Assembly (NCBI RefSeq): GCF_003334385.1
Contig: NZ_QOWN01000063.1
Length of the DNA: 16,740 nt
Source of the DNA: Escherichia coli
GTDB lineage: Bacteria; Pseudomonadota; Gammaproteobacteria; Enterobacterales; Enterobacteriaceae
Reading direction: 5' to 3' (one strand)
How positions within the stretch are numbered: position 1 is the first letter of the stretch; each line of letters opens with the position of its first letter. A program made the position numbers and the translations under genes. This document shows positions 1 through 9,214 of the stretch, one piece after another. A model generated the notes under the pieces. The model saw nothing but the letters and a program-made list of their open reading frames with translations, had not been told where the DNA came from and did not search any database.

Positions 1-63
1 GTTACCAAAGCTGTTCATATCCGGTACCTGATTTTCTCCTGTCCCCACATTCCTCTTTGCCGC

Positions 64-89
64 TTCTCCCAAACCAACCTTTTAGAAAA
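64..89. promoter_or_regulatory. Candidate hix/gix-like invertase crossover half-site upstream of pin
   Basis: TTCTCCCAAACC-AA-CCTTTTAGAAAA lies about 55 bp upstream of the invertase start codon. The left half and AA core resemble recalled hix/gix crossover sites (hixL about TTCTTGAAAACC AA GGTTTTTGATAA). The right half is not a good inverted copy, so this is tentative. Confidence 0.2.
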
Positions 90-143
90 TGCAGTTATTC
101 GGCTCAGATGGCATGATCCCGGATTTTTACAGGGTTATTTCTC

Positions 144-698
144 ATGCTTATTGGCTATGTACGTGTGTCAACAAATGACCAGAACACAGATCTACAACGT
201 AATGCGCTGAACTGTGCAGGATGCGAGCTGATTTTTGAAGACAAGATAAGCGGTACAAAGTCCGAAAGGCCGGGACTGAAAAAACTGCTCAGGACATTAT
301 CGGCAGGTGACACTCTGGTTGTCTGGAAACTGGATCGGCTGGGGCGCAGTATGCGGCATCTGGTCATTCTGGTTGAGGAGTTGCGCGAACGTGGCGTTAA
401 TTTTCGCAGCCTGACGGATGCTATTGATACCAGTACCCCAATGGGGCGCTTTTTCTTTCATGTGATGGGGGCCCTGGCTGAAATGGAACGAGAACTGATT
501 GTTGAACGAACAAAAGCTGGACTGGAAGCTGCTCGCGCACAGGGACGAATTGGTGGACGTCGTCCCAAACTTACACCAGAACAATGGGCGCAGGCCGGAC
601 GATTAATTGCAGCAGGAATTCCTCGCCAGAAGGTGGCGATCATCTATGATGTTGGTGTATCGACACTGTATAAGAAGTTTCCGGCCGGAGATAAATGA
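144..698 (+). CDS. pin: Serine recombinase, Pin/Gin/Hin/Cin-family DNA invertase (184 aa)
   Basis: ATG at 144. N-terminal catalytic motif MLIGYVRVSTNDQ with the nucleophilic Ser, a resolvase/invertase core (DTLVVWKLDRLGRS) and a C-terminal HTH (VAIIYDVGVSTLYKK). Length and sequence are closely similar to PinE/Gin as recalled. Confidence 0.9.
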   Translation: MLIGYVRVSTNDQNTDLQRNALNCAGCELIFEDKISGTKSERPGLKKLLRTLSAGDTLVVWKLDRLGRSMRHLVILVEELRERGVNFRSLTDAIDTSTPMGRFFFHVMGALAEMERELIVERTKAGLEAARAQGRIGGRRPKLTPEQWAQAGRLIAAGIPRQKVAIIYDVGVSTLYKKFPAGDK

Positions 699-700
699 AA

Positions 701-742
701 CCGTAGCACGTCGTATGCAAGATCGTGCTGCGGTTTATGCTT
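701..742. terminator. Hairpin between convergent pin and GIY-YIG genes (putative bidirectional rho-independent terminator)
   Basis: 10-bp stem CCGTAGCACG (701-710) pairing with CGTGCTGCGG (724-733), including one G-U pair, around a 13-nt loop. It is followed by TTTATGCTT on the + strand and by a T-rich run (complement of 690-700) on the - strand. Confidence 0.45.
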
Positions 743-755
743 ACCACTTGAAGAT

Positions 756-1625
<870 letters not shown>

Positions 1626-1709
1626 CTAACCCTTTGAATTTACATAGCGCAAAAAGATACCTTTCCTCATAATGTGAGCTAATTTTATGTTTCGTTTGAT
1701 GATCGGGTC

Positions 1710-1770
1710 GGTCTCGAAAACCGGAGTAGGGGCAACTCTACCGGGGGTTCAAATCCCCCTCTCTCCGCCA
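1710..1770 (+). pseudogene. tRNA-Ser(CGA) 3' fragment (serU-like; anticodon arm, long variable arm, T-arm, acceptor 3' strand and CCA), att-remnant-like
   Basis: GGTCTCGAAAACCGGAGTAGGGGCAACTCTACCGGGGGTTCAAATCCCCCTCTCTCCGCCA matches the 3' two-thirds of a class II tRNA-Ser with anticodon CGA. No 5' acceptor strand (GGAGAGA) is present upstream, so it is a fragment, not a gene. Confidence 0.6.
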
Positions 1771-2352
1771 CTTTATCAATGACTTATCTCCTGACTTCCC
1801 GCCTTGCTTTTCCTAAACAGAACAATCGTAGAATATTCTTGAAGGGTTAGATCGTCACTGTTTTCTGTTCGATACTGTGACATTCAGCACTTGATTCGCT
1901 ATGGATCTGACAGGAAGGTTTTGAGCGAAAATCTGCAGTTATTCAGTCGTTTTCTTATCGGTCACCATTATTCTTTTAGACATTGATCCTACAAAGCTGC
2001 CGCAAAGTTGGTGGTGGGAACTGAAGTTGCGTAGAGAAGGGGTCAATACCCGGAGGCAAACATGGGCTGGCAAAAGTGTAGCGGCATTAGGCGCAGCTAT
2101 TTAGCCTAGTTATGTTTTATGAAAACTTGATATCATATAAGTGTCTTACTTATTGGCTGTAAATAAGTTTTTCCTAAGGAATTGTTTCTTGAGTATCATT
2201 TGTAACTGTAACGGAATTTATAATCCTTTGCTTTATTGTTACGGTATTTTTTATCACACCCTATTTTTAGTGGTTTTTTATACTGAAGTTTGGCAAAGTG
2301 AACTTTATATACATATACTTCATCCTGGTTTCAGTTAAATTGGGTGGATGAT

Positions 2353-3096
2353 ATGGCAACTACATGTTCAGTTATATTGATTTTGGAGTCCTTTGATGTT
2401 TATTTCGGAAAAGAGAGTGTGTTTCTGGAGAGAGGTTCATCTGTACTTGTCGACTCTAGCTCTAGAGATTTTTTCCTGACATATCCTGAAAGAGTGATAG
2501 TGGCGGATTTTGGCGCTGAGTTTATTAGTCGCTATTTGAAAGCTAATAACTTAAGGGATATTTCTGATTGTAGGGAATATCCATCTTATTTAAAAATAAA
2601 CTTTGCTGACTTCAGTTTAATTAAAGGATTAATTAGTTGGGCTAATCACTGTGCTGAATACATAGAAATTTTTGATGAGTCTATTGCTTTTACATGTCTC
2701 TCTGCATTTTCTTCTGAAAAACAATTTGGAGTATTTCTGTTTGGATGTTTGAAAAGCACAGGGGCTAAAGTTAAAACGATTATTCATACGGATTTATCTG
2801 CACCATGGCGTCTTAAGGATATATCATCAAGATTATATCTCAGCGAAAGTTTACTAAAGAGGAAATTGAAAGAAGAGGGGGTATCATTCAGTAAGATCAT
2901 ACTTGATGAGAGGATGCAAATGGCTGAATATTTACTCAGCACTCGTTGTTATCCTATTAGTAAAGTAGCTAAGGTCTGTGGTTATGCCAGTGTCTCATAC
3001 TTTACTTATGTATTTAGACGTTATTTTGGTGTTTCTCCAAGTCAATACTCTCAGAGGAGTTCAGAAAGTAAAATTCTTACTCACCAGGGAATCTGA
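2353..3096 (+). CDS. AraC/XylS-family transcriptional regulator (Rns/AggR/ToxT-like size, about 247 aa) in AT-rich DNA
   Basis: C-terminal double HTH typical of AraC family (WRLKDISSRLYLSESLLKRKLKEEGVSFSKI...VAKVCGYASVSYFTYVFRRYFGVSPSQY). Strongly AT-rich codon usage unlike the flanking core genes. The ORF track starts at GTG 2344; the first ATG is at 2353 with a GGGTGG purine tract upstream. Confidence 0.75.
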   Translation: MATTCSVILILESFDVYFGKESVFLERGSSVLVDSSSRDFFLTYPERVIVADFGAEFISRYLKANNLRDISDCREYPSYLKINFADFSLIKGLISWANHCAEYIEIFDESIAFTCLSAFSSEKQFGVFLFGCLKSTGAKVKTIIHTDLSAPWRLKDISSRLYLSESLLKRKLKEEGVSFSKIILDERMQMAEYLLSTRCYPISKVAKVCGYASVSYFTYVFRRYFGVSPSQYSQRSSESKILTHQGI

Positions 3097-3100
3097 TCAT

Positions 3101-3600
3101 TGTTCTTGCCCCCTTATTTCCAGACAGGGGGTGTATCTTAAGTTAACGTTACCCGCTGACGTCGATATTCTCGCGGAGAGCGATAACCCAACGCACTGTG
3201 CGGATGGTGTTCATTGTAATGTTCGATCGCCACTGCAAGATTATGCAATGCCGTTCTTACATTCGGTTTCGGCATGAACGCGATGTAGTCTTCCTTCATC
3301 GTTTTCACGAACCTTTCTGCAATTCCATTACTCTGAGGACTGCTGATTGCCGTTGTGCAGGGCTCCAGATTCAACTCTCTGGCGAACTGCCGTGTTTCAT
3401 GCGCTCTATACGCTGAACCGTTATCTGTCAGCCACTGGATGGACTGTTCCGGTACTTTATCGCCGAAGCGTTTTTCTATCGCTCCTAACATGACATCCTG
3501 CACTGTCGCTTTATCGTAACCTCCCGTGCTTGCGGCCCAGTCTATGGCTTCACGATCGCAACAGTCCAGGGCGATTCATCTGGGCCAATCCTCGCTCATA
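3101..3600 (-). mobile_element. Truncated IS3-family (IS2-group) insertion sequence remnant
   Basis: Terminal sequence TGTTCTTGCCCCCTTATTTCCAGACAGG at 3101-3128 resembles the IS2 inverted-repeat end (TGGATTTGCCCCTATATTTCCAGACATC as recalled). It is followed by the C-terminal part of an IS2 InsD-like transposase. The inner boundary is uncertain and no second terminal repeat was identified. Confidence 0.65.
3138..3575 (-). pseudogene. IS2 InsD-like (IS3 family OrfB) transposase, C-terminal fragment only
   Basis: Translation ...[31 protein letters not shown]...[51 protein letters not shown]...[18 protein letters not shown] has the DDE-core C-terminal signature of IS2-type transposases. The frame is closed by a stop at 3576-3578; the N-terminal half and the OrfA gene are absent. 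Confidence 0.7.
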
Positions 3601-3850: not shown

Positions 3851-3895
3851 ATTCGTAATGCGAAGGTCGTAGGTTCGACTCCTATTATCGCACCA
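3851..3895 (+). pseudogene. ptwF: tRNA-Thr(CGU) 3' fragment (thrW-like; corresponds to the ptwF pseudo-tRNA of K-12), island right-end att remnant
   Basis: ATTCGTAATGCGAAGGTCGTAGGTTCGACTCCTATTATCG-CACCA matches tRNA-Thr from the anticodon loop (CGT) to CCA with one G missing near the 3' end. No 5' half is present. It lies immediately before the core yagP-pao genes. Confidence 0.7.
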
Positions 3896-4021: not shown

Positions 4022-4432
4022 TTAAGCCAATTGCTGCCGCCATTCTTTGACGTAGTCAATCAGGGCGCGGAGCTTTGGTGCAATATTGCGACGCTGTGGG
4101 AAATACAGATAGAAGCCCGGAAATTGTGGAAGAAAGTCATCAAGCAGCGATACAAGCTTACCGCTTTCAATATATGGCCTGAAAGTTTCCTGAGTGGCAA
4201 TTGTTATTCCTCCGCCGGCAAGAGCCAGCCTCAACATCAGACGCAGATCATTAGTCGTAATCTGCGGTTCAATCGCAAGGTCGAAAGTTCTCCCGTTTTC
4301 TTCAAATGGCCAGCGATAAGGCGCAACCTCCGGGGACTGACGCCAGCCGATACACTTATGGGTATTTCCCCCGGAGGCGAGAAAGCGCTCTCCACGCCCG
4401 GCCGCAAGGATCAGGACGACGGGGGCAGGCAT
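4022..4432 (-). pseudogene. yagP: LysR-family regulator remnant, C-terminal effector-binding portion only (136 aa)
   Basis: Translation from the internal ATG at 4432 gives 136 aa with a LysR C-terminal domain signature (...GGGITIATQETFRPYIESGKLVSLLDDFLPQFPGFYLYFPQRRNIAPKLRALIDYV). No HTH domain is present. Its 5' end overlaps the paoD stop region (4411-4432). Position and length match K-12 yagP. Confidence 0.6.
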
Positions 4433-5367
4433 GAATCCTCCTCCTGATGGAGACGTACAGAGGCGACTTCTGCCAGCACGGAGAGTGCCAGAGTATGCGC
4501 ATCCCGGGCTTTGGGGAATATCCCGACGGGTGCCCGGATTTGCGTTGTTTCCTCCCTGGACCATCCCAGCTCGTGGAGCTTTTGCAGACGTAACGTGTGG
4601 GTTCGATAGCTGCCCAATGCGCCGAGATAAAAGGGTTTTGCTTCTCGCGCGGCCTGCAACACTGGCAGCTCCCGGTTGAGATCATGGCACAGCAAAATGA
4701 CCGCCGTATCGGTATCGATCTGAGCGCTGGCTGAGGCCGGAAAAAGATCGAAGATATGGCTGTCATAGCCTGTGGCTGCTGCAAGACTCGCGGTTGCCTG
4801 CGCCTCAAGAGAACGTCCGTAAATCATCAGCCTGACGCATGGCCTGAACCCCACCTCAAAGCCATTGAGATTCCAGCCCGTCCGGGTTTGCGTGGGCAGG
4901 CACACCAGCGATTGTGCTTGCGGATCGTAGCGCAGCCCCACCGGTTTTCTCTGTTCCAGGCGGTTCAGCACGGCGAGCAGAGGCTGTGCCGAGCGTAGTT
5001 TATGGAGCGTCAGCGTGATCCCACCGCCGCAGGGCAGAACGATGTCAAACCACGGCGAACCTTCGCCATAGCGAATTTCGCGATCGCGGCCTGAGCCCAT
5101 CATCTCCAGCGCTTCAAAAGCGGCAGCGGCCTCCACGCAGCCGCCAGAGACAAAACCGCAGTAACGACCATCTTCGCGCACCACCATCTGCGCCCCGAGC
5201 GGGCGCGCCGCGCCGCCGCGTATCTCCACCAGCGTCACCAGCACCGCTCCTTTACCGGACATTAGCGCCTCTACGGCGAAGCGCAGAATGGTCCGGTGGT
5301 CATCGGTGAGAAACGCCTGCTCTGGCTTATGCCAGTGTTCGTCTTTGTCAAAAAGCGGGTATGACAT
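4411..5367 (-). CDS. paoD: Molybdenum cofactor insertion chaperone, XdhC family (318 aa)
   Basis: ATG at 5365-5367 with a GGAGGA Shine-Dalgarno sequence 4-9 nt upstream. 318 aa, last gene after paoC. Length and position match K-12 PaoD (YagQ). Confidence 0.9.
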   Translation of the reverse strand: MSYPLFDKDEHWHKPEQAFLTDDHRTILRFAVEALMSGKGAVLVTLVEIRGGAARPLGAQMVVREDGRYCGFVSGGCVEAAAAFEALEMMGSGRDREIRYGEGSPWFDIVLPCGGGITLTLHKLRSAQPLLAVLNRLEQRKPVGLRYDPQAQSLVCLPTQTRTGWNLNGFEVGFRPCVRLMIYGRSLEAQATASLAAATGYDSHIFDLFPASASAQIDTDTAVILLCHDLNRELPVLQAAREAKPFYLGALGSYRTHTLRLQKLHELGWSREETTQIRAPVGIFPKARDAHTLALSVLAEVASVRLHQEEDSCLPPSS

Positions 5368-5376
5368 TGTTCCTCC

Positions 5377-7575
5377 TTAAACCACATCCGGCAGCTTATC
5401 GAGCAGCTTATCCAGAGTGATGGGATAATCCCGTACCCGAATACCGGTGGCGTTATACACCGCGTTGGCGATAGCCGCGCTCACGCCGCACAGGCCCAGC
5501 TCACCGACACCTTTGGCCTTCATCGGGGAGGATATGGGGTCGGTATCATCCAGGAAAATCACCTCCTGTTTTGGGATATCCGCATGAACCGGCACCTCAT
5601 ACCCCGCCATATCGTGATTAACGAAGTAGCCCAAACGGTCATCCACCGCCAGCTCCTCCATCAGTGCCGCGCCCATGCCCATAGTCATTGCGCCAATGAC
5701 CTGGCTGCGCGCAGTTTTCGGATTCAGGATGCGTCCTGCAGCACACACAGCGAGCATACGCCGGACCCGAACTTCTCCCGTCGCGCTATGCACGCCGACC
5801 TCCACAAAATGCCCGGCAAAGGTCGACTGCTGGTACTCTTTGCTCAGTGTTCCGAATTCAATGCTCTCTTCCGCTGTCAGTCTGCCGCCTGCGGTGGCTT
5901 CATGTAGCGTGGCGCTTCGGGTACCGTTGGTAATCTTGCCGTCGGCAAACTGCGACTGCTCAGGATCAAACCCGACTGCCGAGGCAATCATTTCGCGAAG
6001 CTTCATACAGGCGGCGTAAACGCCGGAGGTGGAGGTATTCGCGCCCCATTGTCCACCAGAACCCGCAGAAACCGGGAAACTGGAATCGCCGAGGTGAACC
6101 GCAACCTGCTCCAGCGGTACGCCAAGCATTTCCGCTGCCGTCTGGGCCAGAATGGTGTAGCTGCCGGTGCCAATGTCGGTCATGTCCGTTTCTACGGTAA
6201 CGGTGCCGTTTTGTTCGAGGTGAACCCGAGCACCCGATTTTTCCAGCAGATTATTGCGAAAGCCCGCCGCAACACCGTGGCCGACTAGCCACTCCCCGTC
6301 GCGCACCTGTCCGGGTGTGGCGTTGCGCTGCTTCCAGCCAAATTTATCCGCTCCGGTGCGCAAGCACTCGATAAGCTGACGGCGAGAGAAGCAGCGCGTC
6401 GGGTCGGCGGGGTCAACCTGAGTGTCATTCAGGATGCGAAACTCGACGGGATCGATGCCCGCTTTTTCCGCCAGTTCGTCGATCGCGATTTCGAGCGCCA
6501 TCAGACCGGGGGCTTCGCCGGGCGCACGCATGGCGTTCCCTTCCGGCAAATCAAGCGTGGCGAGCCGCAGGCCGGTATGACGATTCGCCCCGGCGTAGAG
6601 TAATTCGCTTTGCTGTACCGCCGTTTCCGGCGTGCCGCCGGGCAGGTTTCCAGACCAGCTTTCATGTGAGATAGCGGTGATTTTCCCGCTCTGGTCGGCA
6701 CCGATACGCAAGTGCTGAAGGGTGGCGGGGCGGTGCGTGGTGTTATTGGGAATAGAGGGGCGGGGGAGCATCACTTTAACCGGACGTTTCACCGCTCGGG
6801 CGGCGAGGGCCGCCAGCAGCGCATCGCTTCTCAGGAACAGCTTGCCGCCAAACCCTCCGCCGATATACGGGGAGATAATACGCACATTCTCCACGGGAAC
6901 TTTCAGCGTTTTTGCCAGATCGGTGCGGCACCAGTCAATCATCTGATTTGAGGTCCAGAGGGTAAGCTTATTTCCATCCCAGACGGCCATCGAGGCATGC
7001 GGCTCCATCGCCATATGGCTCTGGTCCGGGGTCGTGTAGGTAGCATCAATCTTCACCGCAGCGGAGGTGAAAGCCCCGTCAAAGTCACCGACGTTTTTGT
7101 CGGGCGTGTCTTCCGGCGGCTGATTGACGGCCTGTTTTTCGTCCGCCAGGGAGTAAGCTCCTTTATTACGGCGATAGTGTGCCTGCACCAGCGAGGCCGC
7201 CGCTCGCGCCTGTTCGAAGGTCTCGGCCACTACCAGCGCAATGGCCTGATGATAGTGCTCAATAGTGGGGCCGCCTAACAGCCTGGCGGTGTTTTTGTCG
7301 CCTTTGCCGAGTGCCCCGGCGTTACTGGCGGTAATGACAGCCAGTACGCCCGGCGCTTTTTGCGCGGCGTCCGTATCAAGGGCGGTGAGGCGTCCTTTGG
7401 CAATGGCGGAACCGACGATATAGCCATAGGCGGCGTTGGGGGCTTCTTCATGCCATTCGTAGGCGTAGCGTGCCGTGCCGGTAGTTTTCAGCGGTCCGTC
7501 GATGCGGTCATGGGGACGACCGACAACCTTCAGCTGATCGATCGGGTTTTCCCCTGCGGGTTTATCAAATTTCAT
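5377..7575 (-). CDS. paoC: Aldehyde oxidoreductase molybdopterin-binding large subunit (732 aa)
   Basis: 732-aa xanthine dehydrogenase-family molybdenum subunit ([21 protein letters not shown]...; GGGFGGK motif). Start ATG overlaps the paoB stop as ATGA at 7572-7575. Confidence 0.95.
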
Positions 7576-8528
7576 GCCTGTGCCCTCGCTTCAGCCAGTA
7601 CGGAGGCAAGCGTTCGCTTCGCCAACAGGAGTTTAAAGGTGTTTTCAGCGGTGGGATGGGCGCTGGCGAACAGCGTGTCATATACGGCCTGCGCCCCCTG
7701 GGATAGCTGAGCATCCGCAGCCTCAATGCGCCAGGGCTTATGTGCTACTCCGCCCAGCGCGACGCGCCCGCTGCCGTCAGGCTGAATAATCGCCGCGACC
7801 GATACCAGGGCAAAGGCGTAGGAGGCGCGATCGCGCACCTTACGGTAGATATGTTTTCCGCCGAGCGGTGGAGGTAACGTCACCGCAACGATAAGCTCAC
7901 CGGGAAGCAGGGCGGTTTCAATGTGCGGCGTTTTTCCCGGAGGGTGATAAAAATCAGCCAGTGTGATACTGCGAGTCTTTCCCTCCGGCGTGATGGTTTC
8001 CACCACCGCATCCAGCAACCGCATTGCGACCGCCATATCGCTCGGATGGGTGGCAATGCAGGCTTCGCTTACGCCTACCACCGCGTGCTGACGGCTAAAG
8101 CCTTCAAGCGCCGCGCAGCCGCTCCCGGGCAGGCGCTTATTGCAGGGCTGATTGGTGTCGTAAAAATAGGGGCAGCGCGTGCGCTGGAGCAGATTACCTG
8201 CGGTGGTTGCCTGATTACGTAACTGACCAGACGCGCCAGCGAGCAGGGCGCGGGAGAGTACCGCGTAATCACGACGCACGCGCTCGTGAGCCGCCAGGTC
8301 GGTGTTCCGTACCAGTGCGCCGATGCGCAGCCCACCCGCGTCGGTCACTTCAATCTTATCGAGCCCGAGGCCGTTCACATCGATAAGGTGGGTGGGCGTT
8401 TCAATTTCCAGCTTCATCAGGTCCAGCAGATTGGTCCCGCCCGCGATAAATTTTGCGCCGGGTACGCGCTGAGCGCTAAGTGCCGCCTCGGCTGGGGTAT
8501 TCACTCGTTCATAGGTAAACGCCTTCAT
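7572..8528 (-). CDS. paoB: Aldehyde oxidoreductase FAD-binding medium subunit (318 aa)
   Basis: 318-aa CO dehydrogenase/XDH medium-subunit-like protein with an FAD-binding fold ([11 protein letters not shown]) and a Cys-rich insert ([11 protein letters not shown]...GSGC). Start overlaps the paoA stop as ATGA at 8525-8528. Confidence 0.95.
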
Positions 8529-9214
8529 GATTTTATCTCCCCCGCAGCATCTTCAATGGCGGCAAGGATGTTAGCGTATGCACCACAGCGACAGATGTTG
8601 CCGCTCATACGTTCACGGATCTCATCGGCAGTTGTTTCTGGAGCGGAAACCAAATCGACCGTGACGTGACTGGGAATGCCGTCCTGAATCTCTTTTAGCA
8701 CCGCTACTGATGAGCAAATTTGCCCGGAGGTGCAGTAGCCGCACTGGAAGCCATCATGCTTGATAAAGGCCGCCTGCATGGGGTGAAGATTATCTGGCGA
8801 ACCCAGGCCTTCAATGGTGGTGATCTCGGCCCCCTGATGCATGACTGCAAGCGTCAGGCAGGCATTAAGCCTGCGACCATTGACCAGCACGGTACAGGCT
8901 CCGCACTGTCCGTGATCGCAACCTTTCTTGGTACCGATCAAATGCAGATTTTCACGCAAAGTGTCCAGTAGCGTGGTTCGGGTATCCACCTCAAGCTGCT
9001 CGGTTTTGCCGTTCACCTTCAGTGTCAGGGGCATTATCTCTGGCGCGGGTGTAGCTGCCGGAACGCTTGCCGCCAGCGTAGAATGAGGATAAACCACGGC
9101 GGTCGCCGCTGTTGCGGCGCTCACTTTAATCAGATCGCGACGGGTCAAACTTAAATCGTGCGGCTCGTGCTTCCCAACCCGATTATCTTCGGGGTATTCG
9201 CCTTGGTTGCTCAT
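8525..9214 (-). CDS. paoA: Aldehyde oxidoreductase iron-sulfur small subunit with twin-arginine (Tat) signal peptide (229 aa)
   Basis: N-terminal Tat motif [17 protein letters not shown], and two [2Fe-2S] Cys motifs ([19 protein letters not shown]...CRCGAY). GGAGG Shine-Dalgarno sequence upstream of ATG 9212-9214. Confidence 0.95.

Follow-up and report, generated by a model that had tools for sequence, protein, structure and literature searches.

An intact Escherichia coli paoABCD operon with a single twin-arginine signal and ATGA overlaps that may couple its structural genes

We analysed a 16,740-nt stretch of Escherichia coli DNA (contig NZ_QOWN01000063.1, assembly GCF_003334385.1; hereafter the window) that carries paoABCD, the operon for PaoABC, an aldehyde oxidoreductase of the periplasm, and for its chaperone PaoD. 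In a six-frame list of open reading frames (ORFs), four head-to-tail ORFs on the minus strand exactly filled the interval 4411-9214 (Table 1). All four started with ATG, none contained an internal stop codon (0/4) and no frameshift was present. An earlier reading of the letters without database searches (the sequence-only reading) had named the region paoABCD and called the locus intact. Frameshifts and premature stops were sought against E. coli K-12 and none was present, which bears out the second of these claims. It is highly probable that this is the E. coli paoABCD operon, that PaoABC is exported by twin-arginine translocation (Tat) through a signal on PaoA, and that putative restarts at ATGA overlaps help to balance the subunits.

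The identity of the operon was established at the level of both DNA and protein. In a comparison with complete genomes, its 4804 bases matched those of E. coli K-12 MG1655, and of many further strains, with 100% identity, and the matching genes carry the RefSeq names paoA, paoB, paoC and paoD. Full-length PaoA was 100% identical to chain A of PDB entries 5G5G and 5G5H, as was PaoB to chain B, and PaoC and PaoD were identical to the K-12 proteins; these matches bear out the name given to the locus. PaoC differed at two residues from chain C of 5G5G, with A88 and D391 in the window and in K-12 and V88 and G391 in the crystallised protein. A88V and D391G are probably cloning or strain variants of the latter.

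Profile searches placed the four products in the expected families. PaoA scored 430.7 bits against the NCBIfam PaoA equivalog NF008514 (cut-off 322) and contained the Pfam domains Fer2 and Fer2_2, and PaoC scored 1366.4 bits against the PaoC equivalog NF041671 (cut-off 1180), with the domains Ald_Xan_dh_C, MoCoBD_1 and MoCoBD_2. PaoB contained FAD_binding_5 (E = 2.9e-41) and CO_deh_flav_C; no NCBIfam equivalog for PaoB was found at or above its cut-off in the profile search, and the K-12 annotation gives its product as 'FAD-binding Fe-S subunit'. PaoD contained XdhC_CoxI and XdhC_C, with the NCBIfam XdhC models scoring below their cut-offs, and its gene, encoding a chaperone of the XdhC family, lies 9 bases 3' of paoC in the same orientation. 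The region is an ordinary intact E. coli paoABCD operon, whose identity, single Tat signal and co-export were already known. The sequence-only reading had itself rated the locus as expected biology of minor interest, and we judge that rating to be right.

Table 1 Features of the window (positions in the 16,740-nt stretch; aa, amino acids; FAD, flavin adenine dinucleotide; SD, Shine-Dalgarno)
Feature	Position	Strand	Description
paoA	8525..9214	-	229 aa small subunit; two [2Fe-2S] domains and an N-terminal Tat signal
paoB	7572..8528	-	318 aa FAD-binding (and Fe-S) medium subunit; no export signal
paoC	5377..7575	-	732 aa molybdenum-cofactor-binding large subunit; no export signal
paoD	4411..5367	-	318 aa XdhC-family cytoplasmic chaperone for cofactor insertion; no subunit of the exported enzyme
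PaoA signal-peptide region	9056..9214	-	residues 1 to about 48-53; n-region, twin-arginine motif, h-region
paoA/paoB ATGA overlap	8525..8528	-	paoB start ATG and paoA stop TGA
paoB/paoC ATGA overlap	7572..7575	-	paoC start ATG and paoB stop TGA
paoC/paoD junction	5368..5379	-	TAA stop and 9-base spacer; no overlap
paoA SD GGAGG	9221..9225	-	6 bases 5' of ATG; anti-SD duplex -9.5 kcal/mol
paoB SD-like GGGGGAG	8537..8543	-	within paoA 3' end, 8 bases 5' of ATG; duplex -8.6 kcal/mol
paoC SD-like GAGG	7584..7587	-	within paoB 3' end, 8 bases 5' of ATG; duplex -8.4 kcal/mol
paoD SD UAAGGAGG	5372..5379	-	spans the paoC stop codon; duplex -12.1 kcal/mol
yagP	4022..4432	-	LysR-type remnant
22-codon ORF	9337..9405	+	in the paoA-yagU spacer
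tRNA 3'-end-like fragment	3854..3895	+	42 bases
Pin-type site-specific recombinase (invertase)	144..698		identity to strain 2824
GIY-YIG protein	756..1529	-	identity to strain 2824
AraC-family regulator	2353..3096		identity to strain 2824
Integrase-core remnant	3138..3572	-	identity to strain 2824
IS009 (RF02111)	10219..10415	+	last yagU bases into the yagU-ykgJ spacer
ecp genes	11100..13422	-	fimbrial operon

The gene junctions were of two kinds. At both paoA/paoB and paoB/paoC, the upstream stop and the downstream start overlapped by 4 bases as ATGA, reading aaatcATGAagg (longer context aaatcATGAaggcg) and caggcATGAaat (longer context caggcATGAaattt), respectively, such that the last two bases of the downstream ATG are the first two of the upstream TGA. 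Both overlaps had been claimed in the sequence-only reading and can be read directly from the sequence. The paoC/paoD junction reads gtt TAA GGAGGAACA ATG, with a spacer of 9 bases and no overlap. The heading of that reading, which spoke of ATGA-coupled genes for the whole operon, holds for the first two junctions and not for the third, as its own text made clear. The overlaps set the three stoichiometric subunits apart from the chaperone gene paoD.

All four genes had a ribosome-binding site at their start, that of paoD being the strongest (Table 1), and duplexes reaching -8 kcal/mol occurred in only 6.5% of 25-nt segments in the operon. A later start for paoA, suggested by alignment of the PaoA profile from residue 11, was rejected. 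No in-frame ATG, GTG or TTG lies near residues 11-13, and a GGAGG stands 6 bases upstream of the ATG at 9214.

Translational coupling at the ATGA overlaps is the sole step that we infer here, and it is a reasonable and ordinary one; the rest is known. A ribosome terminating on paoA (or paoB) would restart at once on paoB (or paoC) via the ATGA, which would help to supply matched amounts of the three structural subunits, made close together. Translation of paoD, which is not needed in stoichiometric amounts, would begin independently at the strong ribosome-binding site of that gene, after the 9-base spacer. The whole operon would be carried on one mRNA beginning upstream of paoA. Published work on E. 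coli is consistent with such an arrangement. A 4.5-fold enrichment of short spacings and overlaps is seen for genes whose products form heteromeric complexes, and the '+9 to +12' spacing class, in which the +9 spacer of paoD with its SD falls, has been read as a class of independent initiation (PMC10666635). Of five native ATGA pairs tested, four were tightly coupled; where an SD lies within the upstream gene, it generally aids reinitiation and does not replace it (PMC6728339). The -4 spacing is also the commonest same-strand gene spacing in E. coli (PMC10666635), so a single -4 overlap is no rarity.

The foremost alternative to coupled restarts is that each gene starts at its own SD, the overlap being compact packing with little or no effect on subunit ratios. 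We consider this unlikely, although a number of observations favour it and weigh against coupling. First, well-spaced SD-like sites lie 8 bases 5' of the start codons of both paoB and paoC (-8.6 and -8.4 kcal/mol), so independent initiation is possible. Second, the fifth of the native ATGA pairs, bioBF, was uncoupled, its initiation being de novo (PMC6728339). Third, 81-nt stretches of RNA around all four starts were not distinguishable in folding from shuffled sequence (z = +0.68, +0.43, -0.21 and -1.19, the first two values being those of the paoA/paoB and paoB/paoC junctions). With no unusual fold at either overlap, there is no sign of a structure tying the downstream start to upstream translation, and folding neither supports nor excludes structure-gated coupling at the junctions. 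Fourth, PaoABC was assembled and exported when expressed from a synthetic operon whose genes each carried a separate ribosome-binding site and a C-terminal tag (PMC4273604). Separate sites and tags leave no overlaps in such a construct; assembly and export can therefore do without them, at least under overexpression, and the overlaps are at most a device for efficiency or stoichiometry that is not required for export. Finally, a literature search for an experiment on coupling in pao found none, and simple scans detected neither a promoter-like site on the minus strand 5' of paoA nor a terminator 3' of paoD. These scans were uninformative, their site counts not exceeding those expected from shuffled sequence, and the single-transcript view is drawn from gene spacing only.

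We further investigated the junctions in homologous loci. A tblastn search of a plasmid collection with PaoB matched 635 records, from which 18 loci were examined, with PaoB identities from 82% to 41%, representing Enterobacterales, Rhizobiaceae, Rhodobacterales, Sphingomonadales, Acetobacteraceae, Azospirillum, Burkholderia, Pseudomonas, Psychrobacter, Deinococcus and Rhodococcus. Together with E. coli this gave 19 loci, with junctions and N-termini taken from the nucleotide sequence; the sample is small, plasmid-derived and without phylogenetic correction, and its counts are indications, not rates. The junction between the small and medium subunit genes (A/B) was an ATGA or GTGA overlap in 16/19 loci (the -4 overlap being found in 15 of the 18 plasmid homologues), spanning Pseudomonadota, Deinococcota and Actinomycetota. 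The exceptions were Burkholderia (+11), P. oryzihabitans (-14) and Ensifer (annotated as +2, with GTGA also possible). The junction between the medium and large subunit genes (B/C) was more varied, at -4 in six loci, -8 in one, -1 in one, +1 to +5 in seven and +12 to +22 in four, and thus lay between -8 and +5 in 15/19. The indications are that the E. coli B/C overlap is one of several close-spaced solutions.

These comparisons bear on the packing explanation from both sides. The B/C overlap is poorly conserved, with -4 in only 6/19 loci and a range of -8 to +22 among the homologues, which speaks for packing and against coupling. Retention of the A/B overlap in 16/19 diverged loci, despite differing flanking residues and a variable length of the PaoA C-terminus, is far more than drift would leave and argues the other way, as do the coupling of four of the five tested E. 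coli pairs, the usual aid given to reinitiation by an internal SD (PMC6728339) and the enrichment of overlaps among subunits of complexes (PMC10666635).

A further alternative is that, although it looks intact, the locus in this strain is an accessory operon that is silent or decaying. Among 5426 complete E. coli genomes, 3616 gave a match to the pao operon and about a third lack it, and in a few strains insertion sequences (ISVsa5, IS5, ISEc52, ISEc31) lie inside the operon, with paoB split where the annotation shows it. In addition, the adjacent LysR-type gene is only a remnant, and no promoter-like site for paoA was found in the scans described above. Against this, the four reading frames are complete and encode proteins identical to those of K-12, whose PaoABC has been purified in active form (PMC3958847), and good ribosome-binding sites are kept on all four genes. 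We regard decay or silence as very improbable.

The sequence-only reading had placed a Tat signal on PaoA and on no other product, and the profile matches agreed. The twin arginines of PaoA are residues 25-26 (bases 9137-9142), inside LTRRDLIK (residues 23-30, bases 9125-9148), of which T-R-R-D-L-I-K (residues 24-30) is a close match to the S/T-R-R-x-F-L-K consensus. NCBIfam TIGR01409 matched residues 23-41 with a narrow pass (17.7 bits, cut-off 16.7) and Pfam TAT_signal matched residues 23-40 (E = 7.7e-4). The n-region was unusually long, at 24 residues, and the h-region was mildly hydrophobic, with a mean Kyte-Doolittle value of 1.50 over residues 28-42. Candidate cleavage sites were TLA↓A (48/49), LAA↓S (49/50) and VPA↓A (53/54), which would leave a mature PaoA of ~19 kDa. 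PaoB, PaoC and PaoD had no match to a Tat hidden Markov model (HMM), no arginine pair within residues 1-70 and no hydrophobic N-terminus. YAGT_ECOLI (PaoA is also named YagT) is reportedly missed by TatP, even though the protein is listed as a known Tat substrate (PMC1182353), so a negative TatP check of PaoA would be a false negative and would mislead. As a guess, the long n-region is the reason for this miss.

Cytoplasmic cofactor insertion is the usual reason for Tat export, and all three Pao subunits carry cofactors. In the cytoplasm, PaoA takes up two [2Fe-2S] clusters, PaoB FAD and an Fe-S cluster, and PaoC molybdopterin cytosine dinucleotide (MCD), the last with the help of PaoD, which itself stays behind. 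PaoA, PaoB and PaoC then form a 1:1:1 heterotrimer, and the folded trimer leaves by the Tat translocase through the PaoA signal, with PaoB and PaoC as 'hitchhikers'. The sequence agrees with the co-export of PaoB and PaoC that the sequence-only reading had proposed, and this mechanism is a published result. Tagged PaoA, PaoB and PaoC were periplasmic in the wild type and only cytoplasmic in a tatC mutant; PaoB and PaoC remained cytoplasmic when PaoA was missing, and PaoA was not exported and remained cytoplasmic in the absence of either PaoB or PaoC (Lee et al. 2014, PMC4273604). PaoD is absent from the mature enzyme, and PaoABC made without PaoD is unstable and devoid of MCD (PMC2997495, PMC3958847, PMC10609526). 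Aldehyde oxidation with the MCD cofactor is likewise known for the identical K-12 proteins (PMC3958847, PMC2997495). Cofactor uptake, assembly, hitchhiker export and a cytoplasmic PaoD are shown in the literature, and the sequence here is consistent with all of them.

That the arginine pair of PaoA is a chance match on a cytoplasmic enzyme, or that PaoB and PaoC reach the periplasm by another route, is scarcely credible: the Tat HMM scores are barely over threshold, TatP missed YagT (PMC1182353), the n-region is unusually long and the small subunit lacks a Tat signal in 12/19 loci, including the Pantoea homologue (PaoB 82% identical), yet fractionation of wild type, tatC mutant and cells without PaoA gave the locations described above (PMC4273604), YagT is among the known Tat substrates (PMC1182353) and the closest signal-bearing homologues retain an (L/I)(T/S)RRD(L/V) motif, and published experiments have already refuted both readings.

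The Tat signal was more patchily distributed across the 19 loci than the A/B overlap. It was present on the small subunit in 7/19 (E. coli, A. fabrum, S. meliloti, R. rhizogenes, A. tumefaciens, Ensifer and P. oryzihabitans) and was missing from 12 of the 18 plasmid homologues; no other subunit carried a Tat signal in any of the 19 loci. The closest locus outside E. coli was on a plasmid of Pantoea sp. SOD02. Its PaoA (locus L004, 3456-4004) begins MSSQHLTTPAPAMMPISFKVNG without a Tat signal and with a GGAGG of its own, and no arginine pair was found in the upstream open frame of its gene. This start corresponds to about residue 50 of E. coli PaoA, inside the candidate cleavage zone, and is consistent with cleavage around residues 48-53. 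The Tat signal is thus indicated to be a variable add-on in the PaoABC-like family, and the A/B overlap looks, from the loci compared, to be selectively maintained independently of localisation. Whether the family as a whole combines an old A/B overlap held by selection with a Tat signal switched on and off between close relatives is, in our estimate, evenly balanced. If it does, the same enzyme would have moved repeatedly between cytoplasm and periplasm, and A/B coupling would serve assembly, not export. This would be a matter for the family, the window itself being ordinary.

Comparison with known systems gave a graded picture. E. coli K-12 PaoABC (YagTSR) with PaoD (YagQ), represented by PDB 5G5G and 5G5H, shares the same DNA, proteins, gene order and all junctions; relative to MG1655 there is no difference within the operon, and the left flank is a different island in place of prophage CP4-6. 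[quoted passage not shown] Methylobacillus aldehyde oxidase (5Y6Q), 4-hydroxybenzoyl-CoA reductase (1RM6) and carbon monoxide dehydrogenase CoxSML, among others, have domain sets and a small/medium/large order in common with Pao, and are far more distant than 5G5G (for PaoA, E = 7.9e-54 versus 2.1e-153). In its export, PaoABC resembles hydrogenase-2, in which the sole twin-arginine signal is likewise on the Fe-S small subunit HybO, the partner HybC has no signal and leaves the cytoplasm only once assembled, and the two depend on each other for export (PMC4273604). Unlike hydrogenase-2, PaoABC is ternary, with two passengers, and belongs to the xanthine oxidase family. [quoted passage not shown] Coupling in those pairs was measured with reporters, whereas pao is likened to them by sequence alone.

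As a complete copy of a well-studied operon, the locus matters little beyond annotation. The by-products of the analysis are that the A/B overlap is kept far beyond E. coli, that TatP is misleading for PaoA and that the operon is accessory.

Upstream of paoA, the paoA-yagU spacer held only short ORFs without ribosome-binding sites. One of these, a very hydrophobic 22-codon ORF (MSPANKFMFAGMLMMMGAGLLL), has no SD nearby, is unannotated in K-12 and is probably a chance occurrence. Rfam returned nothing at E <= 1 for positions 9150-9700 upstream of paoA, and at the gathering threshold it returned nothing but IS009 for the whole window, with no riboswitch (e.g. for the molybdenum cofactor).

At the other end of the operon lies the LysR-type remnant yagP, from which the N-terminal region for DNA binding is missing; as annotated in K-12, it shares 22 bases with the end of paoD. 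Pantoea, A. fabrum, Burkholderia and P. oryzihabitans have intact LysR genes next to their pao-like operons, and the E. coli pao operon may have lost its original regulator to island insertion. Further left, a 42-base fragment resembling the 3' end of a transfer RNA (tRNA), GGTTCGACTCCTATTATCGCACCA, forms the left boundary of the DNA in common with K-12; in K-12 its end coincides exactly with the right end annotated for the cryptic prophage CP4-6. A complete tRNA at this position was rejected, only the 3' fragment being present; ARAGORN found no tRNA in the window and Rfam at E <= 1 returned nothing at the fragment. It is probably the remnant of an integration site that hosts different islands in different strains. 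The left flank (1-3600) had a GC content of 0.36-0.46 and was not CP4-6 as in MG1655. It was 99% identical to strain 2824, in which tail-fibre genes lie just beyond the genes of this flank (Table 1).

The right flank comprised the divergent yagU, ykgJ and the ecp fimbrial operon. The IS009 match there covered the full model at 182.5 bits (gathering threshold 117). Among the ecp genes, ecpE and ecpD overlap by 32 bases and ecpD and ecpC by 11 bases in the RefSeq annotation of an identical stretch.

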